Positions 990 to 46,879 of a DNA stretch of 64,000 nt are shown piece by piece; the first letter of the stretch is position 1; the number at the start of each line of letters is the position of its first letter. Below the pieces are notes generated by a model. The model searched no databases and was not told where the DNA came from. It saw only the letters and a program-made list of their open reading frames with translations. The DNA comes from an uncultured Bdellovibrionales bacterium (GTDB lineage Bacteria > Patescibacteriota > Minisyncoccia > Moranbacterales > UBA9337), in contig CAZSCV010000001.1 of the NCBI GenBank assembly GCA_964605525.1, positions 172,645-236,644 of the forward strand, given 5' to 3'. The position numbers and the translations under genes were made by a program.

Positions 990-1069
990 TTTGTTTTGGA
1001 TTTTGAGCATAGAAGTTGGGGGTGCTTGCCTGCCTTTGGAGGGAATGCCCAAAATCAAAAACTCCTTAG
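990..1069. repeat. interspersed repeat family R1, copy A (overlaps RhuM stop codon)
   Basis: Left part ttggattttgagcatagaagttggggg resembles copy C (5238..5299). The 26-nt core 1043..1068 gaatgcccaaaatcaaaaactcctta matches copy B at 25/26. Confidence 0.6.
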
Positions 1070-2088
1070 TTTTCTCCAGTCGGTAAAGATTTCACAAACT
1101 TATCAAAATCAGATTCTATCGCTTGTGTTTTGTTATATTCATCATATTCTTGAAATGCTTTTTGCTCCGCTTGAGCGTGAGAAATTGAACCTTTTCCTTC
1201 AAGCACATCGTATTTATTGAATTCCAAGAAGTTATTTACGGACTCTGCCAGTTTTTCCATCGTGAGAGAGGTGTGATTTTCAATCAATCTTTCAATATAG
1301 TCAAAATAGCCGACGATACCTCTTTCTAGCTTCTTTATTTTATCTTCATTAAGATAATTTTTGGCGATAACTGTGTCTGATTTAAGAATCCTGCCTTTTG
1401 GAGAATTTTTCCAAGTTTTCAGTCCCATGAAAGGTTTTTGCTTGTCTGCTGTTTCATAAATAATCTCAGCTGCGGTTTTGCCGGTAATGGCAAAATGGAA
1501 TTTATTTTGAATTATCGCGTAAAAATTTTTAGCAATCTCGGATGCGGGACTATAATCCATGCTGCATTCAGCAAAAATATCCGTGATTTGCTGGTAAATT
1601 TTTCTTTCACTGGCGCGAATTGAACGGACTCTTTCTAGGAGTTCAAGGAAGTAATCTTTGTCAAAATATTTTCCGTTCTTTAGTCTATCATCATCCATTG
1701 TAAAGCCTTTGATGATATACTCCTTGAGTCTTTCTGTCGCCCAAATACGGAACTGAGTGGCCTCAGCTGAGTTTACTCGATAACCAACGGAAATTATGGC
1801 GTCAAGATTGTAGAATTTTGTTTGGTATTTTTTTCCGTCATTGGCAGTATATTCCAAAATGGAATGAACTGAATTTTCTAGTAGTTCGCCACTTTCAAAA
1901 ATATTCTTCAAATGTTTGGCGATAGCTGGCTGTTGCACGCCAAATAGTCTGGCCATCTTATTTTGATTCAGCCAAATATTTTCGTCATGAAAGTAAATTT
2001 CCACTTTTACTTTGCCACTTGGAGCTGTATAAAGTAAAAATTCTGTCAGCTCATCTTTTATGCTAATTTTATGATTGTTTTTGGGCAT
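1066..2088 (-). CDS. RhuM-family virulence/DNA-binding protein
   Basis: 340 aa; conserved RhuM blocks: EIYFHDENIWLNQNKMARLFGVQ, ISVGYRVNSAEATQFRIWATERLKEYIIKGFTMDDDRLKNG, ERVRSIRASERKIYQQITDI. Confidence 0.8.
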   Translation of the reverse strand: MPKNNHKISIKDELTEFLLYTAPSGKVKVEIYFHDENIWLNQNKMARLFGVQQPAIAKHLKNIFESGELLENSVHSILEYTANDGKKYQTKFYNLDAIISVGYRVNSAEATQFRIWATERLKEYIIKGFTMDDDRLKNGKYFDKDYFLELLERVRSIRASERKIYQQITDIFAECSMDYSPASEIAKNFYAIIQNKFHFAITGKTAAEIIYETADKQKPFMGLKTWKNSPKGRILKSDTVIAKNYLNEDKIKKLERGIVGYFDYIERLIENHTSLTMEKLAESVNNFLEFNKYDVLEGKGSISHAQAEQKAFQEYDEYNKTQAIESDFDKFVKSLPTGEN

Positions 2089-5314: not shown

Positions 5315-7021
5315 TTACTTCAGTAGACTGTCTAATGCTTCAGAATAATTAGAAGCAATATTGTAATTGTATCTTTTAACTTTTTGCCAAAAAAGATACT
5401 TTACATCATCGTTATTTTTTATTAAGTCTTTGGCCTCTGCTTCAGATGAAATATTTTTTCTTCTTATACATCTTTCAACGCTAGCAAGTTTGGTTGGAAG
5501 AGAGTTTTTTGGAACCCAGGTTCTTGTATTGTAAATATCCGAGATGCATTCCTCGAGATGGTTTTCAAATTCAGAAAATAGATTTTCTGCAGAAAAGTTT
5601 TCTGGTAGAAAAATTAAAAAAACGTTCTTGGTGTCCTTAACTTTATATCTTTCAAATCCGATTTTTGACTTATCGAGTGTATTGTGTTCATAAAATCTAG
5701 AGACTTCATTCTTTCCTTTATCACTGTCTATTATAAAAAATATTTTGTTATTGATAACAAAAGGTGCCGATTGAAAAACGGCAATAAATTTCGATATTTC
5801 CGTAATGCCATTTAAGCCTTTCGTAACATTTATACCAGTATCAATAAATTTTTCAATTGTCCCTGTTTTTTCATCTTCTACAAAAATCAAAGGCTCATTT
5901 TTAGCTGCTAAGAAATAGGCGAAGAAATTTGGGTCACCCATTATTTTACCGATTTCTTTGATTTCGTCATCGGTGAATTGTGAGGTTTGCTTATTTAGAC
6001 TAGATCCAAGAATATTCCAAATAATTTTTTCTTCTGCTATTCTGCTGCCTGCTAATAGCACAGGAGAATGTGTTGATATGATCATTTGAATATTGTTAAG
6101 CCATTTTTCAGAGTTTAATTGTTTGGCTAAATTTGCCAACAAGTCAACATGTAGGAATGATTCTGGCTCCTCCAACAACCAGAGAGGGTGGTATTCTCCT
6201 CTGTGCAAGGTTCGATCGCTGTCAAGTAAGAAGTGTGTAAGATAAAGTATCGTAGATTGTGCACCAGTGCCTTGTGATGTTAATTCAATTTCTGGCGCAC
6301 CCTTGTAGCCAGAAAAATTTATATCAGAAATAGTTATAATATCCCTGATGCTTTTGGGCAAGTTAATAGAAATGCTGCTATCTGGCCACATTTTTTGGAG
6401 ATTTTCAGTTAAGGCACCGGAAAGATAGCTTTTTGACTTTTTTCTTAATTCTTCCCATTCATCTTGCAATTTTTTTATACTCTGGGTAATATTCGATCCT
6501 CTGCCCCAATTTGCCAATAAACGCTGACGTAATTTTTCTTGAGCATTTATTAATAAAGATTGTCCCTCTTGAGGATGTAAATATGTCACTTTAAAACTTT
6601 TTAAAATCTTCAAGATAGCGTCAGGAAAATTTCCTTTTAAAATATCACCATTTATTCTGTATGATGTGGTGACAATTTTTGTGTCGGTGGCGACAGAAAA
6701 ATATTTAATAATTGTTAATTTGTCACCGTACTCTTTAATTAATTCCTGTTTGAATTTTGGAGTGGTTAATTCTTCTAGATCAAATGTTAGGGCTATTTCA
6801 GCGATGTTAGACTCTTTCTTTTTGCTTAAAAACGATGTTTTGTTAATGATATTTCCATCAGATAAAACAGAGTCATCAAAAAAGGCATTTATGGCATATA
6901 ACACGGTGCTTTTTCCAGAATTATTTACACCAACAAAATATGATCCCTCACCTAGATTGAATGATACTTTTTCGCGAAATGTTTTAAAGTTTTTAATGGA
7001 TATTTTGTTGATCAGTGGCAT
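5315..7021 (-). CDS. OLD-family ATP-dependent endonuclease (ABC ATPase + TOPRIM), class-1-like
   Basis: 568 aa; Walker A GVNNSGKST; Walker B/D-loop LLEEPESFLH; H-loop ISTHSPVLL; C-terminal TOPRIM acidic motifs FVEDEK and FIIDSDKG. Confidence 0.75.
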   Translation of the reverse strand: MPLINKISIKNFKTFREKVSFNLGEGSYFVGVNNSGKSTVLYAINAFFDDSVLSDGNIINKTSFLSKKKESNIAEIALTFDLEELTTPKFKQELIKEYGDKLTIIKYFSVATDTKIVTTSYRINGDILKGNFPDAILKILKSFKVTYLHPQEGQSLLINAQEKLRQRLLANWGRGSNITQSIKKLQDEWEELRKKSKSYLSGALTENLQKMWPDSSISINLPKSIRDIITISDINFSGYKGAPEIELTSQGTGAQSTILYLTHFLLDSDRTLHRGEYHPLWLLEEPESFLHVDLLANLAKQLNSEKWLNNIQMIISTHSPVLLAGSRIAEEKIIWNILGSSLNKQTSQFTDDEIKEIGKIMGDPNFFAYFLAAKNEPLIFVEDEKTGTIEKFIDTGINVTKGLNGITEISKFIAVFQSAPFVINNKIFFIIDSDKGKNEVSRFYEHNTLDKSKIGFERYKVKDTKNVFLIFLPENFSAENLFSEFENHLEECISDIYNTRTWVPKNSLPTKLASVERCIRRKNISSEAEAKDLIKNNDDVKYLFWQKVKRYNYNIASNYSEALDSLLK

Positions 7022-7286
7022 AAAAAATATTTAAATCGTTTTCGCAGCGATAGCGGAGAAAACACCTTATTCCCCCTCATTAATTAATAAAAAAACAAAA
7101 TCGAATTCTTTTTAAGAGTTGGGCGAAGCCCAAAAGAAAATATGTATTTCATAACTCGTTATTATGCGAAACTCTAGTTTTTTTTGCGTGTTTTTTGTTT
7201 ATGTAAAAAGTATAGCATATATTCATTTTCGTGTAATCTGGCGGATATTTTCATACTTTTCGGCGTCGTGATGTTGGTTTTTGGTT

Positions 7287-7318
7287 TTGCGGGAAATAAA
7301 AAAGAAAAGGTGGTATAA
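7287..7318 (+). promoter_or_regulatory. candidate extended -10 promoter for comM
   Basis: tggtataat (TGnTATAAT) at 7310..7318; weak -35; about 55-75 nt upstream of the comM start. Confidence 0.3.
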
Positions 7319-7391
7319 TAAGGGAAGTAAAAAGTTAAATACATGGCGCATAATAGAAATTTGATGTTTTTTGTTATGTGTTTCATGCATA

Positions 7392-8924
7392 ATGTTTGTG
7401 CCATCTCGAGTATTTTCAGCAGCTACAATTGGACTGGATAGTGAAGTGGTAGAAGTGGAGGTAGATGTCCTTTCCGGAGGGTTGCATCAATTTACCATTG
7501 TCGGCTTGCCGGACACATCCATCAAGGAATCGCGCGATCGTGTTTCCAGTGCTATTAAAAATAGCGGATTCAAGCCGCCTCATCAATGCGGAAGAATCAC
7601 GGTCAACCTTGCTCCTGCCGATCTTCCAAAAATCAGTCCGATTTATGATCTTCCTATCGCGATTGGTTTTTTGATGGCAACAAACCAGATGGATTTTGAT
7701 TTTTCCAAGAAAATATTTGCCGGAGAACTGGCTCTTGATGGAAAAGTGCGCGCGGTGCAGGGAATTTTACCAATCGCTTTGATGGCAAAGGAAAAAGGAT
7801 TTGAGGAGATTTATATTCCCAATGAAAATGCGAGAGAAGCGAGTGTGGTAAAAGGAATAAAAATTATTCCTATCGGCAGTCTTTTTCAAATTGCCAATCA
7901 TCTGATCGGAGATGAAATTGTGAGCGAATTTCCTCCGGCTGAAATTGAAGATTTGTTTTCGGATTACAAAAGTGAATATGATATGGCAGATGTTAAGGGT
8001 CAACAACAAGCCAAGAGAGCAATGGAAATTGCCGCTGCCGGAGGGCATAATATCATTCTTAATGGTCCGCCCGGATCGGGAAAAAGCATGCTGGCAAAAA
8101 CCATGGTTTCAATTTTGCCGCGACTCACAATGAAAGAGGCGCTTGAGGCGACAAAAATATTTTCTATTTCCGGAAAATTGAGCAAAAATAATCCATTGGT
8201 TTTGGAGCGACCGTTTCGATCTCCCCATCACAGCGCCAGTGCCGTTTCTTTGGTGGGTGGCGGGACATATCCCAGACCCGGGGAAATCAGTCTTTCTCAT
8301 CGCGGGGTTTTGTTTTTGGATGAGTTTGCGGAATTTCCGAAAAATGTTATGGAAAGTTTGCGCCAGCCATTGGAAGATGGGGTGATTACGGTATCGCGCG
8401 CCAAGGGAACTTTGAAATTTCCCGCGCAGTTTATTTTAGTGGCGGCAATGAATCCATGTCCTTGTGGAAATGCGACTGATCCGGGAAAATTGTGTTCGTG
8501 CACTCCTTCTCAGATTTCAAGATATCAACGAAAAATATCCGGACCTATTTTGGATAGAATTGATTTGCAAATTGAAGTACCTAGGATTGATTTTGAAAAA
8601 TTAGAGGATGAAAACAGGGGGGAATTGAGCATATCTATTCGAAAAAGAGTGGAAAGCGCAAGAAAAATCCAAGCAAAAAGATTTGAAAAATCGGAGATAA
8701 TCACCAATAGTGAAATGGGTTCCAAGCAAATCAGGAAATTTTGCGTTTTAGACGACCATTGCAAAGATATTTTACGAGGGGCGGTTTCTTCTATGGGACT
8801 TAGCGCCCGGTCATATTTTCGCTTGATTAAAATTGCGCGGACTATTGCCGATTTGGCGGGAGTTGATAATATTAGAGGTGTCCATATTGCTGAAGCAGTG
8901 CAGTACCGGTTTAAATCAGAATAA
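7392..8924 (+). CDS. comM: YifB/ComM-family Mg-chelatase-like AAA+ ATPase
   Basis: N-terminal SRVFSAATIGLDSEVVEVEVD; Walker A GPPGSGKS; Cys cluster CPCGN...CSC; ORF track starts at TTG 7371, first ATG is 7392. Confidence 0.85.
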   Translation: MFVPSRVFSAATIGLDSEVVEVEVDVLSGGLHQFTIVGLPDTSIKESRDRVSSAIKNSGFKPPHQCGRITVNLAPADLPKISPIYDLPIAIGFLMATNQMDFDFSKKIFAGELALDGKVRAVQGILPIALMAKEKGFEEIYIPNENAREASVVKGIKIIPIGSLFQIANHLIGDEIVSEFPPAEIEDLFSDYKSEYDMADVKGQQQAKRAMEIAAAGGHNIILNGPPGSGKSMLAKTMVSILPRLTMKEALEATKIFSISGKLSKNNPLVLERPFRSPHHSASAVSLVGGGTYPRPGEISLSHRGVLFLDEFAEFPKNVMESLRQPLEDGVITVSRAKGTLKFPAQFILVAAMNPCPCGNATDPGKLCSCTPSQISRYQRKISGPILDRIDLQIEVPRIDFEKLEDENRGELSISIRKRVESARKIQAKRFEKSEIITNSEMGSKQIRKFCVLDDHCKDILRGAVSSMGLSARSYFRLIKIARTIADLAGVDNIRGVHIAEAVQYRFKSE

Positions 8925-17142: not shown

Positions 17143-18132
17143 ATGAAATCAAAAAGCATTCTTTCGCCATTATTCGTATTTTTAATTGTTGTTTTTTTGA
17201 GTTTTTCATTTTTTGTTTTTGCGGATGATAACAAGGATGAAAAAAGCGTTCTCTTGGATTCGGATCAGGACGGGCTCAGTGATCAAGAAGAGAAATCTTA
17301 CGGAACTGATTCTAATAATGCTGATACTGACGGAGATAGTTACTCTGATGGGGTGGAATTGAAGGGTGGATATGATCCGCTTAAGCCCGCTCCTGGAGAT
17401 AAGATTATAAATAACAGCGATGGCACTGTTTTAGCGGAAGGCGTGGGCGGGGAGCAGGATCTTTCAGAAGATGAAAATCTAACCGATGAATTGTCAAAAA
17501 ATGTTGCCAATTTGATTTCTGACGCAAAGTTGAGCGGTGAAGATTTGAGTCTGGCGGATATTGATGAATTAGTTAATACTACGTTGACTTCCAAGGTATC
17601 GTTCGAGGATCTTCCTGATGTGGATGAGGATGAAATTAAAATAAAAAAACAAAATTATGATAAGTTAGATGAAGATGAACGGAAAGAAAAAGAGAATGAA
17701 GATACTCTGGAATATTTGACAGCTGTTTCTTATTTGGCGTTGGATAGTTTTCCTTATCAAATTTCAGAAGAAAAAGATTTAGAGAAATTTTCTCTTGATT
17801 TTGTTTCTCAGTTTTCTCTTTTTCTTTCCGCCTCTCCCGATAGCGAGGAATATTTCAATGATCTGGCGGAAAAAGGCGAAGATTTTCTGGATGCTTTGAG
17901 AGAAATAGAGGTTCCTGAAAATTTGCTAGAAAACCATATTAAGGGAATGCAATTGGCAAATTATGTTATTTCCATGAAAGGAGAGATGACGATTGACCAA
18001 GCCGACCCAATATCTTCGCTTGTCCAGTTGTCAAAAATTCAAGGGCTAATTACTTTAACGGAAGAATATGTGCAGGAAATGCATCTTTTATTCGTAGCCG
18101 CGGGGATATCTGAAATTCCTATAGAATTGTAA
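17143..18132 (+). CDS. secreted acidic protein with thrombospondin-type-3-like Ca-binding Asp repeats
   Basis: Signal peptide; DSDQDGLSDQEE / DTDGDSYSDGVE repeats; highly acidic. Confidence 0.5.
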   Translation: MKSKSILSPLFVFLIVVFLSFSFFVFADDNKDEKSVLLDSDQDGLSDQEEKSYGTDSNNADTDGDSYSDGVELKGGYDPLKPAPGDKIINNSDGTVLAEGVGGEQDLSEDENLTDELSKNVANLISDAKLSGEDLSLADIDELVNTTLTSKVSFEDLPDVDEDEIKIKKQNYDKLDEDERKEKENEDTLEYLTAVSYLALDSFPYQISEEKDLEKFSLDFVSQFSLFLSASPDSEEYFNDLAEKGEDFLDALREIEVPENLLENHIKGMQLANYVISMKGEMTIDQADPISSLVQLSKIQGLITLTEEYVQEMHLLFVAAGISEIPIEL

Positions 18133-33779: not shown

Positions 33780-33877
33780 TTTTTAGCTTTTTAGAAATTA
33801 ACTTTCTTAGCTTATTAGTTTATAGAACTGAAAGCCTAAAAAGCTGCAGCCTATAATAATCCAATTGCTAATTTACG

Positions 33878-34285
33878 TGGAGCTGATGGGAATTGCACCC
33901 ATGTCCAGAGTTGATTTTAAAAAATATTCTACAAGTTTATCTTGTTTATTTCCGCCCGAAGGCGGTACGGACTTTCGGCTGGAAAACAAACAAAACACCG
34001 AGAGCCCGTCTTTGAGAATTTTGCCGAAAACAACCAAAGATAATTGTTGCCGGCTATCCTAATGGTTGGCACCAAGATCTATTTATTAGGAATCAATAGC
34101 TTGATGGCTATCGGCCTATATTAGGCAATAGCGGAAGCAAAAGCGAAATTTCTTGCGAAAGTTGCTTTTACCTTTGATATAAAGTTTGCACTTAAATATC
34201 TTCCATAAACATTTTTACGACGTGTATTATGAATGGTCGACTTGCTTATTTTTTAAAGTGCAATCTGTCGAAGCTAAGCAGCCCC
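33878..34285 (-). ncRNA. ssrA: tmRNA (ssrA)
   Basis: 5' GGGGCUGCUUAGCUUCGACAG. 3' tRNA-like end with T-arm AUGGG-UGCAAUU-CCCAU. Acceptor GGGGCUG/CAGCUCC with a G3:U wobble, discriminator A, CCA not encoded. Ala-rich tag frame GCA ACU UUC GCA AGA AAU UUC GCU UUU GCU UCC GCU AUU GCC UAA at 34165..34121. Adjacent to smpB. Confidence 0.8.
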
Positions 34286-34989: not shown

Positions 34990-35334
34990 ATGGAAATTTC
35001 AAAAGAAAAAAAAATAATAGTTATCGTTCTGGTTGTGTTAATTTGGATTATTGCCGGACTTCTCGCCTTTTCTTTTTTGAATAAAAATCGAGCTGTGACC
35101 GTTCCCGGGCAAACAGTGAATGTTTCAGAGAATGGCAATGAGGAAAAACAAAAACTTCCAAGTGTGGAAGAAATTCAAGCCGCACTTGAGGAGAAAGTTT
35201 CCATTGAAGATACAAGTTCTTTATCATCTCCCGAAGAAATCCAGGCCGCACTTGAAGAAAAAGTTCCAGAGGATGAAGCTTCCTTCTTATCTTCAGAGGA
35301 AATTCAATCCGCATTAAACGAAAAGGCAAAGTAA
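34990..35334 (+). CDS. membrane-anchored protein with three EEIQAALEEKV repeats
   Basis: N-terminal TM; tandem repeats of about 27 aa. Confidence 0.4.
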   Translation: MEISKEKKIIVIVLVVLIWIIAGLLAFSFLNKNRAVTVPGQTVNVSENGNEEKQKLPSVEEIQAALEEKVSIEDTSSLSSPEEIQAALEEKVPEDEASFLSSEEIQSALNEKAK

Positions 35335-35356
35335 TTTTATATAACTAAAATAAAAA

Positions 35357-36106
35357 ATGAAAACAACAAAAAAATCTTCCAGAAATAGTTTGATTCAAAA
35401 TATCAAATGGCTTTCTTTCTCCCTGGTTCTTGGTCTTTTACTTGGAGGAGGAATGGCAATAGTTAGCGCTTGGACAGATCCGGCAGCTGCTCCTCCGGGA
35501 GGAAACATCGGAGCACCAATCAATACAGGAAACACCGGACAATCAAAAGGTGGAAATTTGGTCCTGAACGCTTCCGGAACATGGGCTAATGGTTTGATTG
35601 TGGCAAGCGGGAATGTGGGGATTGGGACGGCAACGCCTTCTTCAAAATTACACATAAGGTCTAGCAATGCCGTAACTCCTTTGTTGGTTTATGGCGGTGG
35701 GAATTCCAGAGTTGAAATAGCGCGTTTCTATAAAGCGGATGACACGGAAGTCATGAGGATACAAAATACCGGTAGTGTCGGAATTGGAGACAACGCTCCG
35801 GATGGAACGTTAAAATTAGATGTCGAAGGTCAAGTCGGAGCCAGTGCATATTGCGACCAGAACGGGGCGAATTGTAAGGCGATAACGGCGATGGGGGGAA
35901 TTTTCGGTAGCTACACCAGAACTTGCGGTGGAAATTGTACCGCATCCTGCGAGGCGGGAGATTTGCGTACGGGATGCACTATGAATCCTACAGGAAATGC
36001 CCATAATAATAGTCTCGATTATTCTATTCCTAGCGGAACGAATAGCTGTACGTGCAGTTTATATGCATCTTCCGGAACTTGCTATGCTATCTGTCTTGAT
36101 GTGTAA
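35357..36106 (+). CDS. secreted/membrane-anchored protein, paralogue A (shared N-terminal module, Cys-rich C-terminus)
   Basis: First ~200 nt identical to 37301.. and similar to ~300 nt; GNVGIGTATPSSKLHI beta-rich motif; C-terminus with 10 Cys. Confidence 0.5.
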   Translation: MKTTKKSSRNSLIQNIKWLSFSLVLGLLLGGGMAIVSAWTDPAAAPPGGNIGAPINTGNTGQSKGGNLVLNASGTWANGLIVASGNVGIGTATPSSKLHIRSSNAVTPLLVYGGGNSRVEIARFYKADDTEVMRIQNTGSVGIGDNAPDGTLKLDVEGQVGASAYCDQNGANCKAITAMGGIFGSYTRTCGGNCTASCEAGDLRTGCTMNPTGNAHNNSLDYSIPSGTNSCTCSLYASSGTCYAICLDV

Positions 36107-36243
36107 TTTTTGTTGAGTATTTTGGGTTGCATTAATTAATTTAAGAGTTTTCGAGTGGAATATTTTGAAATATTGAAAATAAAAAACTCATTTGCAATGC
36201 CAAATTCTTAATATTATTTCTAAAAAATAAGCAAAAAACAAAA

Positions 36244-37251
36244 ATGAAAAAAAGGATTATATTGTTACTTGTGTTTATCGCGGTGTTTGCCGTGGTTGGT
36301 GCGACCAAGATAAAGGCGGGGGTCAATGATAATGCTATTGGATGGCTTTGGGGTGGCGGTACGGAAGCAGATGGAGTTTTTCCGGGAGATGGAACTAGCA
36401 CTAATGTCAGATGGCTCAGTATGAATAATACTAATAATTCCGGAGCGGTTGATTATGGCGTTAATATTCCAATGACTGATGGTGAATTGTCCGGAGAAGC
36501 TTGGAGTGGAGGAGATGATTCCGGTTCCGGCCTGGGATATGTTACGTTTGACGCTTCTCGATTGGGAGGATGTCCTTCCGGGGCTTGCAGTTCCAGGAGG
36601 GTTGGAAATAATGTAGAAGGCTGGGCGAGGCTTGAGCAAATTGCAGCCGCCAATGCGGCAGGAAATTCTGGCGGATGGCTAGGGTGGATCAGCTTGAGCG
36701 GAACAGCACAAGACGGATCTTCTTACGGAGTTTCCATAGATCCTTCGACGAATACTTTTTCCGGTTTTGCTTGGTCGGATGAATTGGGATGGATTGATTT
36801 TTCCGGTGCTGGCTTCGAAGCGCCAAAAGTTTTGAATGTTAACCTATCCGCTTCCCCGAATTCTTGCGTCGGATGCTCATCACTGACCTCAACCCTCACA
36901 GCTTCCAGAGAGGATACTTCAACAACCGCCGGCGATATTACGTATGAATTTAATTGTAATGAAAGCGATGGAGTTTATGATGTTTCCTATACCACAACAG
37001 ACACTAGTAAATCATATGATTGTACTTATGCGTCTACTGGAACGGCGCAGGTGAGGATTTCCCAGGGCGGAAAAACTGAAACAAGAACAGTTAATGTGAG
37101 TGTGCTTCCGATAGTTTGCGGGGATGGAATTGTGAGTGCCGGAGAGGGATGTGATGATGGCGCAAACAACGGATCTTGCCCGGCTTTGTGCGGCGTATTA
37201 TGCGAGGTTAATACCTGTATTGATAGTTCCTGGAGAGAAGTAGCGCCGTAA
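36244..37251 (+). CDS. secreted Gly/Trp-rich protein with C-terminal DUF4215-like Cys repeat
   Basis: Signal peptide; repeated GW(L/I) motifs; C-terminal CGDGIVSAGEGCDDGANNGSC. Confidence 0.5.
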   Translation: MKKRIILLLVFIAVFAVVGATKIKAGVNDNAIGWLWGGGTEADGVFPGDGTSTNVRWLSMNNTNNSGAVDYGVNIPMTDGELSGEAWSGGDDSGSGLGYVTFDASRLGGCPSGACSSRRVGNNVEGWARLEQIAAANAAGNSGGWLGWISLSGTAQDGSSYGVSIDPSTNTFSGFAWSDELGWIDFSGAGFEAPKVLNVNLSASPNSCVGCSSLTSTLTASREDTSTTAGDITYEFNCNESDGVYDVSYTTTDTSKSYDCTYASTGTAQVRISQGGKTETRTVNVSVLPIVCGDGIVSAGEGCDDGANNGSCPALCGVLCEVNTCIDSSWREVAP

Positions 37252-37300
37252 AAATAAATAAAGATAAAATATAATTTTTTTATTATCTAAATCAAGCAAA

Positions 37301-37972
37301 ATGAAAACAACAAAAAAATCTTCCAGAAATAGTTTAATTCAAAATATCAAATGGCTTTCTTTCTCCCTGGTTCTTGGTCTTTTACTTGGAGGAGGAATGG
37401 CAATAGTTAGCGCTTGGACAGATCCGGCAGCTGCTCCTCCGGGAGGAAACATCGGAGCACCAATCAATACAGGAAACACCGGACAATCAAAAGGTGGAAA
37501 TCTGGTTCTGAATGCTTCCGGAACATGGGCTAATGGTTTGATTGTGGCAAATGGGAATGTGGGAATCGGGACAGTAGCTCCGACCCAGAAATTGGATGTG
37601 GTTGGGAACATAAGAACCAATGCTAAGATGCAATCGAATCAATATTGCGATGCGGCAGGGAATAATTGCAAGGCAATAACGAATACTCAAAACAGGGTAA
37701 TTGGAACCTGTCCTGTCGGACAAAGCATCCGGACGGTCAACGCCGACGGAACGGTCGTGTGTGAGGTGGATGATTCAGGCGCTACATATATGACGGGAGG
37801 TTTGTATGGGATATGCACTTCGTTTAATGATTCGACTAACGCATCTTGTTCCGCAGTTGCATCACCGGCAACTTGTGTTTCTAATACATGTGTCTGTCCA
37901 TCAGGTTTTTTAGCTAAACCAATAGGCCCGGCTGTTGATTATAGAACTTATTATTCATGCGTGAAGCAATAG
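37301..37972 (+). CDS. secreted/membrane-anchored protein, paralogue B
   Basis: N-terminal ~95 aa near-identical to 35357..; divergent Cys-rich C-terminus sharing YCDxxGxNCKAIT. Confidence 0.5.
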
Positions 37973-38106: not shown

Positions 38107-39696
38107 ATGAAAAAAGAACTGGAAAAAATTATCCAAAAATTAGTAAAAGATTTGTTCGGATTGGAGCAGGTTGGTTTTGCGGTGGATTATCCGAAAGATG
38201 AGAAATTCGGGGATTATTCGACGAATGTCGCGATGGTTTTGGCAGGCAGATTGAAAAAAAATCCTATTCAAATCGCTGAAATTATAAAATCAAAACTGAG
38301 CTTCGATTTCATAGACAAAATAGAAATCGTTGCTCCTGGATATATCAATTTTTATTTATCTCCAGAATATTTTCAAAATAAAGTAAAAGAAATAAATGAG
38401 AAAAAAGAAGAATATGGAAATAGCAATGTTGGAGAAAATAAAAAATTTTTAATCGAATTTGTTAGTGCTAATCCGACCGGACCGATTCATTTGGGAAACG
38501 CCAGAGGAGGACCGCTGGGCGACGCGCTGGCGAATGTTTTGAAAAAAAGCAATCATCAAGTCAAAAAGGAATATTATGTGAATGATTTTGGCAATCAAGT
38601 TTTGATGCTGGGACATTCTATTTTGAAAGACGAGCAAGCTCAATATCGGGGGGATTATGTGGATGATTTGGCTTTGCAAAAAGACAAAGAAATGAATGAT
38701 CCGATGGAAGTTGGAAACTGGGGAGCGAATGTGATTTTGGAAAAATTTATCAAGCCGACTTGTGAAGGTTTGGGAGTGGATTTTGACGGCTGGTTTTCGG
38801 AAAAAAGCTTGCATACAAGTGGAAAAGTCGATGAAATTGTTCAAATGCTCCGTGAAAAAAATTTGATATATGAAAAAGACGGGGCGGTTTGGTTCAAATC
38901 AACTGAATTTGGTGATGACAAGGACAGGGTCCTGATTAAATCGAACGGTTTTAAAACTTATTCGGCGACTGATTTCGCGTACCATAAAAATAAAATCGAA
39001 AGAGGTTTTGACAAACTGATAAATATCCAGGGAGCGGACCATCACAAACAAGCAGAGGTAGTGAAATCTTTTGTGGAAAATTTTCTGCACGAAGGAAAAA
39101 AATTGGATTTGATTATGACACAAATTGTGCGCGTTATTAAGGATGGAAAAGAAATAAAAATGTCAAAGAGAAAAGGGATATATTTTGCGCTTGATGATCT
39201 TTTGGAGGAGGTTGGAAAAGACGCAGTCAGATTTATTTTTACTTCCTATTCCCCAACGAGTCATATTAATTTTGATTTGAATTTGGCGCTGGAGCGCAGT
39301 GAAAAAAATCCGGTATTTTATGTCCAATACGCGCACGCGCGGATTTGTTCTATTTTGAAGAAAGCGGAAGATGATGAAGCGGGCGAGCGTAATAAAAACA
39401 AAGAAAGAGTGGAATTGTCGCTTCTTGCGCATGAAAAAGAAATGAGTTTGATGCGGGAGCTGGAAAAGTTTCCGGAATTGATCAAGGAAATATCCCGGAC
39501 ATACGAAGTGCACAAATTGCCGCATTATGCCGTCGGTTTGGCGGATAAATTTCATTCTTTTTATGCGGTGTGCAAAGTAAATGATGCGGATAATGCCGAA
39601 CTTTCTTTGGCTAGACAAGAGCTGATAAAAGCTGTTAAAATAGTGCTATCAGAAGCGCTGAGATTGATTGGAGTGAGCGCGCCCGAATCAATGTGA
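38107..39696 (+). CDS. argS: arginine--tRNA ligase
   Basis: FVSANPTGPIHLGNARGG; KMSKRKG; C-terminal DALR anticodon-binding domain. Confidence 0.9.
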   Translation: MKKELEKIIQKLVKDLFGLEQVGFAVDYPKDEKFGDYSTNVAMVLAGRLKKNPIQIAEIIKSKLSFDFIDKIEIVAPGYINFYLSPEYFQNKVKEINEKKEEYGNSNVGENKKFLIEFVSANPTGPIHLGNARGGPLGDALANVLKKSNHQVKKEYYVNDFGNQVLMLGHSILKDEQAQYRGDYVDDLALQKDKEMNDPMEVGNWGANVILEKFIKPTCEGLGVDFDGWFSEKSLHTSGKVDEIVQMLREKNLIYEKDGAVWFKSTEFGDDKDRVLIKSNGFKTYSATDFAYHKNKIERGFDKLINIQGADHHKQAEVVKSFVENFLHEGKKLDLIMTQIVRVIKDGKEIKMSKRKGIYFALDDLLEEVGKDAVRFIFTSYSPTSHINFDLNLALERSEKNPVFYVQYAHARICSILKKAEDDEAGERNKNKERVELSLLAHEKEMSLMRELEKFPELIKEISRTYEVHKLPHYAVGLADKFHSFYAVCKVNDADNAELSLARQELIKAVKIVLSEALRLIGVSAPESM

Positions 39697-44974: not shown

Positions 44975-46879
44975 ATGTCACTAGATAATTTAAACGAAAA
45001 AATAAACGACCCTAACACAGAAATTGATAATAAGGAATTTTTTGGAGAAAACAAGGGTTTGGCAGAAAATAATTTTCAATCATCTGGCGAAAGAAAATGG
45101 AATCGGATAGCTAGTTGGCTGGACGATGAGACGCTTAGGATTATCAAACTTTTTGGAATGGTTCTTGGCGTGTTATTTTTATTGGGAGCGATTGCTTATG
45201 GAGTTTTCAGATATAGCCAAACAGCCTTCAGCGAGGATCGGGTGATAGTGGAAGTGGAAGGTCCGGTGGAAATAAACAGCGCTGAGATAATAAAATACAA
45301 AATAAAATACAAAAATAACAATCGCGCCGACCTTAATAACGCGGAACTTGCTATCAGTTATCCGGAAAATTTCAAGCCTGAGGGAAATTCCAATTTTGAG
45401 TCCGAGGGTGAAAATAATAGCCGGATTAAATTAGGAAAAATAAAATCCAAAAGTGAAGGGTCTGTTGAAATTCAGGGAAGATTTTACGCGCCAATCAATT
45501 ATACGTTAATAATAAAAGCTTCTCTTAAGTATGTTCCGTCCAATTTCAGCAGTTCGTTCCAGTCTGATGGTCAAAAAGGACTGGATGTGAAGACTTCTGC
45601 GGTAGAGGTTTCTATTGATGCCCCCAGGGAAGTTCTTAGTGAAAATAAAGTTGAATATATTATTGCGTATCAAAATACCAGCACTGTTTCATTTGATAAT
45701 TTGAAACTTAAGGTTTATTTTCCCGACGGGTTTGAAATTGGCGATTCGAGCGTTCCAATTTTCGAAGGAAGTGGTACTTGGAATATCGGAGGATTGGCTC
45801 CGGGTCAAAAAGGAGAAGTTAAGATAAGCGGAATTATTCGAGGTTCAAGAGGTGATGTGAAGTCAATAAAAGCGGTTATCGGGCAATCGAGGCAAGACAG
45901 GGAATTGCTTGTTTATGAAAGCCGGGAAGCAGTTTCCAAAATAGTCGCATTGCCGCTTTCTATTTCGCAAACAGTAAATGGACAAAAATCTTTGAATGTT
46001 AATCCTGGAGAAAGCTTGAAATATGAAATAAGCTATCGCAATGACGGAGATATCGGACTTCGGGATTTGATTTTAACGGTGAAAATAGATTCTCCTGTTC
46101 TGGATTTTTCAAAATTGAATTTGGGAGGCAAGGGTTCTTATGATGCTGATAAAAAGGAAATTTCATGGAAAGCTTCAGATTTTCCCCAATTGGCGAAAAT
46201 TGATCCAAATCAAGGTGAAACAATAAGTTTCTCTATTCCGGTAAAAGAAAAAATTGATGTCAACGGAAGTGGAGATAAAAATTTTTCAATTGAATCAGTT
46301 GCAAAAATAGACAGTCCTGACGTGACATATCCGGCGGTTGGAATTAATGAAAGTACGAGCCGGGCGATTGTGAAAATGAATTCAAAAGTTATTTTGGGAG
46401 TTGGAAGTTATTATAATAATTCCGATATCAAAACTTCCGGTCCGATTCCTCCCGTGGTAGGGCAGGAAACCGAGTATGTTATCCAATGGACAATTTCCAA
46501 TATTTCCAATGATATTGGAGATGTTTCGGCTATTGCTTCGCTTCCGACCGGGGCAAAATGGAAGGAAGAAATTTTTCCGAAGGACGAGAATGTGGAATAT
46601 AACAATAGAACCAATGAAATTGTTTGGAAACCGGGGAAAATTGATGCCGGAACAGGCGTTCTTAATCAGTCAAAAAGCGTAAGTTTCAAAATTTCAGTTG
46701 TTCCGCAGGTCAATCAAGTGGGAATGGCGGTTGCTCTTTTGGGAAAAACTACACTTAAGGCGAAAGACCTGTTTACCGGTGCGGATATAATTAAAGAATT
46801 CAGGGAAAAAAATTCTGAATTGGAAGATGATAGTAGTATTTCCTCTGATGGATATAAGGTTGTGGGAGAAAAAAATTAG
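44975..46879 (+). CDS. large membrane-anchored surface protein with DUF11-like conserved repeat domains
   Basis: N-terminal TM after an acidic leader; repeated ~100-aa beta-rich modules (ISYRNDGDIGLRDLILTVKID etc.). Confidence 0.45.
   Translation: MSLDNLNEKINDPNTEIDNKEFFGENKGLAENNFQSSGERKWNRIASWLDDETLRIIKLFGMVLGVLFLLGAIAYGVFRYSQTAFSEDRVIVEVEGPVEINSAEIIKYKIKYKNNNRADLNNAELAISYPENFKPEGNSNFESEGENNSRIKLGKIKSKSEGSVEIQGRFYAPINYTLIIKASLKYVPSNFSSSFQSDGQKGLDVKTSAVEVSIDAPREVLSENKVEYIIAYQNTSTVSFDNLKLKVYFPDGFEIGDSSVPIFEGSGTWNIGGLAPGQKGEVKISGIIRGSRGDVKSIKAVIGQSRQDRELLVYESREAVSKIVALPLSISQTVNGQKSLNVNPGESLKYEISYRNDGDIGLRDLILTVKIDSPVLDFSKLNLGGKGSYDADKKEISWKASDFPQLAKIDPNQGETISFSIPVKEKIDVNGSGDKNFSIESVAKIDSPDVTYPAVGINESTSRAIVKMNSKVILGVGSYYNNSDIKTSGPIPPVVGQETEYVIQWTISNISNDIGDVSAIASLPTGAKWKEEIFPKDENVEYNNRTNEIVWKPGKIDAGTGVLNQSKSVSFKISVVPQVNQVGMAVALLGKTTLKAKDLFTGADIIKEFREKNSELEDDSSISSDGYKVVGEKN

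Follow-up and report, generated by a model that had tools for sequence, protein, structure and literature searches.

Why should two neighbouring genes begin with virtually the same 250 nucleotides and end in different cysteine-rich domains? The question is raised by genes A and B of a 64-kb stretch of DNA (positions 172,645 to 236,644 of contig CAZSCV010000001.1, assembly GCA_964605525.1; from here on called the window) from an uncultured bacterium of the candidate phyla radiation (CPR), which start 1,944 nt apart, both on the plus strand, with a third gene, C, between them. A sequence-only reading of this DNA had taken A and B for paralogous secreted proteins, in which a constant front carries exchangeable heads, and had suggested that the repeated fronts could mediate the exchange. 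We consider it probable that A and B represent a CPR family, unnamed and very large, of short secreted fibres of the design known from the mosaic adhesive trimer (MAT) fibres of Bdellovibrio bacteriovorus and from phage tail fibres, that they belong to a recurring three-gene cassette, and that recent gene conversion or partial duplication has made their 5' ends alike. The parts of A and B to which the argument refers are the following:

35357..36106, plus strand: fibre gene A (249 aa), with signal peptide, N-module, two stalk repeats, disulfide junction and a Cys-rich head, AGDLRTGC...CLDV.
35357..35606, plus strand: copy 1 of the shared 5' module, in A (nt 1-250, codons 1-83); codons 1-38 are the predicted signal peptide, which ends VSA↓W.
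35609..35629, plus strand: first GNVGIGT stalk motif of A, directly 3' of the identity boundary.
35771..35791, plus strand: GSVGIGD, the second stalk motif of A, with which a stretch of stem begins that runs through the YCD junction and is orthologous to the stem of the one fibre gene in each of two relatives, L004 and L002.
35849..35887, plus strand: junction block of A, YCDQNGANCKAIT, a probable disulfide loop between stalk and head; the block is common across the family.
35888..36103, plus strand: head of A (72 aa, 8 Cys).
37301..37972, plus strand: fibre gene B (223 aa), with signal peptide and N-module as in A, one stalk repeat, disulfide junction, an RVIGTC..VCE hairpin and a Cys-rich head.
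37301..37550, plus strand: copy 2 of the shared 5' module, in B, from repeat search and codon comparison.
37553..37573, plus strand: GNVGIGT stalk motif of B, from motif scan and codon comparison.
37643..37681, plus strand: YCDxxGxNCKAIT junction block of B (13 residues), the counterpart of the block in A.
37682..37969, plus strand: tip of B, a beta-hairpin (aa 132-155) followed by an all-beta Cys-rich C-terminal domain (aa ~160-223).

A repeat search aligned 35354-35637 with 37298-37581 at 96% identity over 284 nt, and a scan of the whole window returned the A/B pair as its sole direct or inverted repeat of at least 45 nt. In codons 1-83 the two genes differ at four positions (codons 12, 68, 69 and 71), all of them synonymous; from codon 84 on the differences are dense and include synonymous ones in conserved residues (GGG/GGA, ATT/ATC, ACG/ACA, CCT/CCG, TTA/TTG). 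Among codons for identical amino acids 5 of 10 differ in codons 84-100 as compared with 4 of 83 earlier (Fisher p = 5e-4), and maximum likelihood places the breakpoint after nt 250: the first 250 nt have 4 differences and the next 50 have 19 (Fisher p = 3e-13). The divergence is thus not evenly spread, and the sequence-only reading was right, coordinates included, in describing paralogous secreted proteins with a near-identical 5' module and a sharp boundary.

On the other side, 5' of the two start codons, the DNA is AT-rich and alignable only with gaps. In the tails the BLASTP alignment is confined to residues 1-100, beyond which the two proteins, each with 10 Cys, have in common only the short YCDxxGxNCKAIT block (73% nucleotide identity over 40 nt); that this block is shared by otherwise different tails had also been seen correctly. 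Neither tblastn nor motif scans found a further copy of the module beyond A and B in the 64-kb window, an exact search with 62 nt of the module in Joint Genome Institute (JGI) metagenomes gave no match, and a module search of genome contigs had the relatives L004 and L005 among the matches listed.

A 250-nt repeat invites the suspicion of an assembly artefact. This was excluded by the fixed single-nucleotide polymorphisms (SNPs) between the copies and by three other assemblies (GCA_007376775.1 and two from ENA made with different k-mers), in which the same order, small membrane protein of 114 aa, A, C, B and argS, is found at 99.97% identity. Between the window and these assemblies there is one SNP in 8.7 kb, and it lies inside the module of B (window 37431; nt 131, codon 44): the codon is GCT in the window, as in A, and GTT in the other assemblies. 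A is a 100% match to protein P0001 (Parcubacteria group bacterium Athens0714_25) and B to P0004, and the source genome is of the Parcubacteria/Moranbacteria type. In one of the other assemblies (L054) 89 nt are missing within argS (window 39508-39596), and the called protein is shortened to 472 aa.

How did the modules come to be identical? Over the module region 5% of the codons for identical amino acids differ between A and B, as compared with 43% between A and the fibre gene of L004, 39% between A and that of L002 and 20-35% in flanking genes. Because synonymous sites vary so freely between orthologues, the identity of the two modules must be recent and recombinational rather than due to constraint at the nucleotide level; its most likely source is a gene conversion or partial duplication not long ago. 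A recA gene is encoded in the window. The SNP in codon 44, a single event, is compatible with ongoing conversion.

The family to which A and B belong was followed in a set of 187 collected proteins, of which 145 have the N-module; the named homologues are almost all from Parcubacteria, Moranbacteria, Nomurabacteria, Paceibacteria and Patescibacteria. The N-terminus has a basic start (rich in Lys and Arg in A and B) and an apolar stretch of ~20 aa, followed by a near-invariant AxA↓W junction, with Ala at position -1 in 137/145, Val, Ala or Ile at -3 in 126/145 and Trp at +1 in 133/145. This junction fits a signal-peptidase-I site, from which cleavage of A and B before W39 is predicted. Then comes, in the alignment, a conserved proximal module, W-T-E-P-x3-P-P-G-G-N-x2-A-P-x-N-x5-Q-x-K-x-G-x-L, and after it the first stalk repeat; in A and B the distance from the predicted cleavage site to the first stalk motif is 46 residues (W39-S/N84).

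The tips vary. When proteins were paired by at least 70% identity over the first 45 mature residues, and C-terminal 70-mers with less than 30% identity were counted as unrelated, 115 of the 131 pairs had unrelated C-termini. Pfam recognizes Peptidase_S74, Gly_rich_2, the collagen-IV C4/NC1 domain, the last part of Shufflon_N and a phage depolymerase C domain among the tips (Peptidase_S74 in the relatives P0007 and L034; the tip of L048 is S74-like by sequence only), and many others are Cys-rich domains for which there is no Pfam model. Many family proteins finish in a Cys-containing last strand. Tip repeats of the form GxxNSAMG, which have no Pfam match, we take to be like the heads of YadA-type adhesins. 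The head type of A recurs in P0002, P0003 and P0006, and that of B (GLYGxC...CxCPSGF/Y...C[YV]K[NQ]) in P0082, P0098, P0084, P0120, P0121 and P0054, the last of which is a Nitrospirae protein with the B head type but without the CPR N-module. The constant front with exchangeable heads, which had been proposed from A and B, is therefore borne out by pairs from across the family, and different heads are also found at the smpB-argS site at which A and B are located.

Pfam and NCBIfam gave no match on A or B. The stalk gave the clue: a profile of 40 homologues, searched against the sequences of the PDB, retrieved only fibres of B. bacteriovorus, with Bd2133 (8ond) matched in three stretches at E = 5e-18 and further matches to 8oml, 8ojn, 8on4 and 8ol4; with A and B as single sequences, MAT fibre entries also came out on top, at E = 0.004 and 0.018-0.027. 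The matching unit is the stalk repeat G.L.l....nglivxxGNVGIGTxxPxxKLxV, of which A has two and B one. Residues 30-103 of B, used in an exhaustive search, retrieved 16,664 representative proteins with this repeat; giants longer than 7,000 aa have as many as 58 copies. PHROGs tail-fibre families matched A and B weakly (3e-8), and a query of viral contigs with a single protein returned one phage fibre with the stalk motif (contig L015). The resemblance of GNVGIGT to fibre proteins had thus been guessed correctly, on the evidence of both the PHROG matches and the MAT structures. That A and B have no established family holds only in part: the domain databases are silent on them, but their stalk is homologous to that of MAT and phage tail fibres, and other members carry Peptidase_S74 and other known tip domains. 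The name "TonB-dependent receptor" that A bears at NCBI was rejected as a misannotation, since the protein is from CPR, has 249 aa and matches no Pfam or NCBIfam model, whereas such a receptor has a plug and a 22-strand beta-barrel (~600 aa or more).

In an AlphaFold2 (AF2) monomer model of A there is a helix at residues 9-37. The AF2 model of residues 101-223 of B is all-beta with a mean predicted local distance difference test score (pLDDT) of 82, and 85-96 over the last 60 residues; searched with Foldseek, the tip model had no significant match in the PDB or BFVD (best E = 1.3 and 0.18).

Tips have been replaced at the locus itself, as conflicting similarities among relatives show. For housekeeping proteins, each pairing of the window, L004 and L002 gives 79-95% identity. 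Gene C of the window is 88% identical to that of L004 and 51% to that of L002, and the N-terminus and stem of A are 79-80% identical to L004 and 62-66% to L002. The head of A shows the opposite pattern to gene C, with 81% identity to L002 and 38% to L004. In the same way the N-module of A is 40% identical to that of P0002, and the heads are 81% identical; in L006 a stem of the L002 type carries a head without Cys. A is a three-part mosaic, made up of the module in common with B, an extra stalk unit absent from B and from the orthologues, and the ancestral stem and head.

Other populations, in which boundaries were taken from sliding identity profiles, gave similar pictures. Paralogues in L021 are 86-93% identical for ~150 nt and then fall; L031 and L044 agree at 100% upstream of the gene and over its first ~230 nt, up to a boundary at GNVGIGT; and L030 and L031 are 100% identical except for the last ~150 nt, which encode the tip. 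A sharp boundary at the GNVGIGT motif was found twice among these other populations. In the fibre alleles of 140-154 aa in L039 (1599-2063) and L040 (2614-3036) an internal segment of ~150 nt is replaced and the flanks are identical; because these two differ internally, segment exchange is not limited to the tip. Head swapping is seen here on an evolutionary scale, not as programmed switching.

The genes that accompany A and B form, with a fibre gene, a cassette of three. In the window these are:

34990..35334, plus strand: small single-pass membrane protein (114 aa) with three acidic EEIQAALEEKV repeats, separated from A by a 22-nt gap.
36244..37251, plus strand: gene C, a secreted protein (335 aa) with GW repeats (GFAWSDELGWIDF), a Cys-rich CGDG..CDDG tail and the C-terminus ..REVAP.

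Orthologues of gene C were found in L002, L004, L006, L012 and L009, and the C-like family comprises 289 matches, almost all of them unnamed CPR proteins, with GYAWSxxxGWIxF repeats and a conserved ...xEVAP end. Small membrane-protein open reading frames (ORFs) equivalent to that of the window, in which a repeat search placed the EEIQAALEEKV-type repeats at 35167-35328, adjoin the fibre gene in L002, L004, L006, L012 and many metagenome loci; the identity between relatives is ~33-38%. The cassette order in relatives is C-like gene, small membrane protein, fibre gene, with one fibre gene at the smpB-argS locus:

L002 (Moranbacteria GWE2_35_2-): C-like protein 314 aa, membrane protein 114 aa, fibre 203 aa.
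L004 (Moraniibacteriota bin 259): C-like protein 336 aa, membrane protein 113 aa, fibre 203 aa.
L006: C-like protein 327 aa, membrane protein 96 aa, fibre 226 aa.
L012: C-like protein 343 aa, membrane protein 112 aa, fibre 227 aa.

The cassette, or the portion of it present on the contig, is directly upstream of argS in L002, L004, L006 and L008, and in the first three of these it stands between smpB and argS, as in the window. Because the relatives have a single fibre gene at this locus, B is, as judged from gene order, an additional copy in the lineage of the window. L009, a distant CPR genome, has two fibres with a common N-module, a membrane protein between them and a GW-repeat protein of 752 aa. 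The association also held in the reverse direction: of 38 JGI metagenome loci fetched with C alone, 26 have an ORF with the fibre N-module, usually 0.1-1.2 kb downstream of C on the same strand and often with a small membrane-protein ORF in between, and several of the other 12 stop right after the C-like gene.

Some further observations concern the cassette and its surroundings. The C-like proteins end in (W/Y)xEVAP (window 37237-37248; L002, L004, L006 and L012), as in SSWREVAP, NWIEVAP and PRYREVAP, which may be a sorting or processing signal. An EEIQxALNxK-like ending recurs in the small proteins of L012, L024 and L047 despite ~33% overall identity. Beside smpB there is a tmRNA gene (window 33875-34285, minus strand; Rfam 121 bits, full-length model), which was not reported by ARAGORN. 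In L004, the closest relative, two genes are inserted between the fibre gene and argS (7051-8435), the second of which encodes an AbiEii toxin (Pfam 3e-22); the insertion is absent from the window. The fibre gene or cassette adjoins type IV pilus genes in L010 (191-4990; pilB, pilC) and L012 (6560-16684; pilM, pilB, pilT, pilC). A promoter scan was uninformative in this AT-rich DNA (15 promoter-like sites as compared with 8.2±2.7 expected), and a scan between the genes found no convincing terminator.

The sequence-only reading had also noted that the GC content of the locus is above that of its surroundings. This is so, the 1-kb bins of 35-38 kb having 43% GC and others about 32-42%, and the source is amino-acid composition. 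The proteins contain much Gly, Ala, Ser, Thr, Pro and Cys, which gives the genes of the locus a GC fraction of 0.52-0.55 at codon position 2, as compared with 0.27-0.37 in neighbours; at position 3 (GC3) A, B and C have 0.35-0.39, the same as infC, smpB, argS, the GT4 gene and ileS. A foreign origin of the locus on grounds of GC was therefore excluded.

With which known systems should the fibres be compared? The MAT fibres are surface fibres of a bacterial predator and relatives of phage tail fibres; Caulton et al. (2024, PMC10769870) describe one conserved cell-proximal end for retention and evolutionarily swapped tips. Among these fibres are Bd2133, Bd1334, Bd2439, Bd2734, Bd2740 and Bd3182, with the structures 8ond, 8oml, 8ojn, 8on4 and 8ol4. 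A and B resemble them in having a signal peptide, the homologous GNVGIGTxxPxxKLxV stalk repeat and a conserved end with swapped tips, in the occurrence of S74 and non-S74 tips within one family and of several paralogues per genome, and in belonging to an organism that lives on other bacteria. They differ in that their Cys-rich tips have no structural relative and in that the CPR fibres come in a cassette with a C-like and a small membrane protein. No CPR member is among the MATs in PMC10769870 or in its supplement, and our literature search found no publication that describes the family or links MAT- or S74-type fibres to CPR. Design and stalk are thus already known from MAT and phage tail fibres; new are the proximal module of their own, the short length and the specific cassette.

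Fibres and tailspikes of phages with a Peptidase_S74 chaperone, such as the K1F endosialidase and the T5 L-shaped fibre, share with A and B the stalk motif, the constant-proximal/variable-distal design and recombinational tip exchange, whereas A and B start with a signal peptide, lack both an S74 domain (no Pfam match) and a virion context, and are chromosomal in housekeeping synteny. PilV of the R64 shufflon likewise has a constant N-terminal part with alternative C-termini that set partner specificity, and some CPR tips match the end of Shufflon_N; A and B, in contrast, have no prepilin signal, inverted sfx repeats or Rci, and their tips are part of two complete genes rather than of invertible segments. 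Paul et al. reportedly described in 2017 widespread diversity-generating retroelements (DGRs) that diversify surface proteins in CPR. Their targets are similar to A and B in being putative surface proteins of episymbiotic ultrasmall bacteria with variable ligand-binding ends and candidates for host attachment. Unlike at such loci, no reverse transcriptase was found among the window ORFs scanned with Pfam and no template/variable repeat pair in the window, and diversity of the A/B type arises by replacement of whole domains and not by targeted mutagenesis.

These comparisons bear on what else the locus could be. The suggestion that it is a variability system, in which the identical 5' modules act as recombination sites for switching or shuffling heads in the manner of a shufflon or of pilin cassettes, could appeal to one locus joining a constant 5' region to alternative 3' regions, to family tips that match part of Pfam Shufflon_N, and to the position of the sole inter-assembly SNP within a module, a hint of ongoing conversion. 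But the modules are direct repeats, between which a crossover would delete the head of A and gene C rather than switch heads; both A and B are intact genes that have a start codon and a signal peptide of their own, which leaves no silent cassettes; inverted repeats of at least 45 nt are absent from the window, the 33-41 kb region having weak AT-rich ones only; no invertase, Rci-type recombinase or reverse transcriptase is among the window ORFs scanned with Pfam; and the YCD block, with 73% identity over 40 nt, is not similar enough for a conversion tract to end in it. The check for strain variation that had been recommended with the suggestion gave a single arrangement in four independent assemblies. 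We therefore find programmed switching very unlikely. Polymorphic toxin loci are also marked by a constant N-terminus, a variable C-terminus and sharp boundaries, and one might see in the N-terminus of A and B a device for export or delivery and in their small, disulfide-rich heads without structural relatives the payload of secreted toxins or Cys-rich effectors. For this, however, a toxin domain is missing (there is no Pfam or NCBIfam match on A or B), neither head is followed by a small immunity-like gene, the tips in the family are typical of binding or chaperone functions (S74, C4/NC1, depolymerase beta-sandwich) and the stalk is homologous to adhesive fibres, so that we give the toxin interpretation equally little credence.

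An origin of A and B as tail-fibre genes of a remnant or active phage, tailocin or prophage in the chromosome would account for the PHROG tail-fibre matches, for the stalk motif in common with phage contig L015 and for the Peptidase_S74 tips of relatives. It is hardly credible in view of the signal peptides, which virion fibres do not have, of the surroundings, where no phage gene is among the window ORFs scanned with Pfam and the smpB/tmRNA-argS housekeeping synteny extends to at least five genomes, and of a GC3 equal to that of the neighbouring genes. Unlikely, if less outlandish, is the view of A and B as accessory proteins of type IV pili, either minor pilins or PilV-like adhesins at the pilus tip. 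Here one can point to the family members beside pilB and pilC (L010) or pilM, pilB, pilT and pilC (L012), to the tips that match Shufflon_N (PilV), to the many whose last strand contains Cys, as in pilins, and to the role of type IV pili in driving Saccharibacteria episymbiosis, as shown in PMC12206443. The proteins nevertheless lack a class III (prepilin) signal with its G↓F(T/S)L(I/L)E motif, their hydrophobic segment comes before the conserved motif and not after it, their stalk is homologous to trimeric fibres and not to pilins, and no type IV pilus gene is among the window ORFs scanned with Pfam. The association in L010 and L012 may still indicate a link between fibres and pili, for example fibres that dock onto pili.

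There remain points that weigh against our own reading of A and B as short secreted fibres of MAT design whose modules were made alike by conversion or partial duplication. At 223-249 aa, with one or two stalk repeats, they are 3-8 times shorter than the MATs of Bdellovibrio, for which the passages used from PMC10769870 give 626-1,151 aa. The beta-rich N-domain of ~130 aa that defines the MATs cannot fit into their 46 residues, where instead a WTEP..PPGGN segment of ~45 aa is found; since the MAT constructs in the PDB are tips only, the N-domain was set apart by length and not by sequence comparison. The AF2 monomer of A has a pLDDT of 62 overall and of 46-57 over residues 71-160; low values in the stalk are as expected of an obligate oligomer, of which they are no proof. 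The order membrane protein, A, C, B in the window as compared with C, membrane protein, fibre in the relatives clouds the history of the locus, conversion between A and B may have run in either direction, and the copy number of the module is that of the 64-kb window and not of the whole genome. The formation of trimers, their display at the surface, docking on C or the membrane protein and the binding of ligands are steps that we infer. Even with these points in the balance, the reading of A and B as cassette-encoded members of the CPR fibre family appears to us the probable one.

Away from the locus, at the left end of the window, a RhuM-family protein (1066-2088, minus strand; E = 1e-101) and an AAA_15/AAA_21 ATPase (5315-7021, minus strand) are encoded, which may be mobile-element or defence genes. 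Two more putative surface proteins (17143-18132 and 44975-46879, both plus strand) have, according to Pfam, one a bacterial TSP3 repeat and the other DUF11.

How might such fibres work? Starting from what was observed at the boundary, in the stalk, in the cassette and in the replacement of tips and segments between relatives and strains, we propose that A and B are exported, probably with cleavage before W39, and would form short trimeric fibres, whose conserved proximal module would be held at the cell surface by C, the small membrane protein or both as a base. The two different tips, that of A an 8-Cys knot and that of B the unrelated hairpin and all-beta Cys-rich domain, would each recognize ligands of their own, either on host cells or on other surfaces. 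A shared base would select for identical proximal modules in paralogues, and conversion tracts would then end where the stalk begins; RecA-type conversion or partial duplication with its 3' end at GNVGIGT would keep both fibres compatible with the base and leave them two tips. The earlier proposal that the locus is a candidate for host attachment is reasonable as a deduction of this kind.

One may tentatively go further and imagine a dedicated CPR apparatus of three components for host recognition, in which one or more miniature trimeric fibres dock via WTEP-PPGGN onto a base made of a wall-associated GW-repeat protein and a small membrane anchor. Tips exchanged by homologous recombination at GNVGIGT would set the host range, and gene conversion would keep the proximal modules identical and so allow several tips to use one base. 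We regard this extension as possible but doubtful; if true, the apparatus would be the CPR counterpart of the Bdellovibrio MAT fibres and of phage receptor-binding proteins. How CPR episymbionts find and bind their hosts is, according to PMC12206443, largely unknown, and type IV pili, which drive episymbiosis in Saccharibacteria (PMC12206443), have been the main lead so far on host contact. The A/B pair itself is a modest finding, and the family and the cassette are the more interesting result: the locus exposes a very widespread CPR cassette and with it testable candidates for determinants of host specificity, for which the AxA↓WTEP..PPGGN module provides a sequence signature with which such fibres can be mined. 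At the same time the pair is a clean natural example of concerted evolution limited to the docking end of a modular adhesin.

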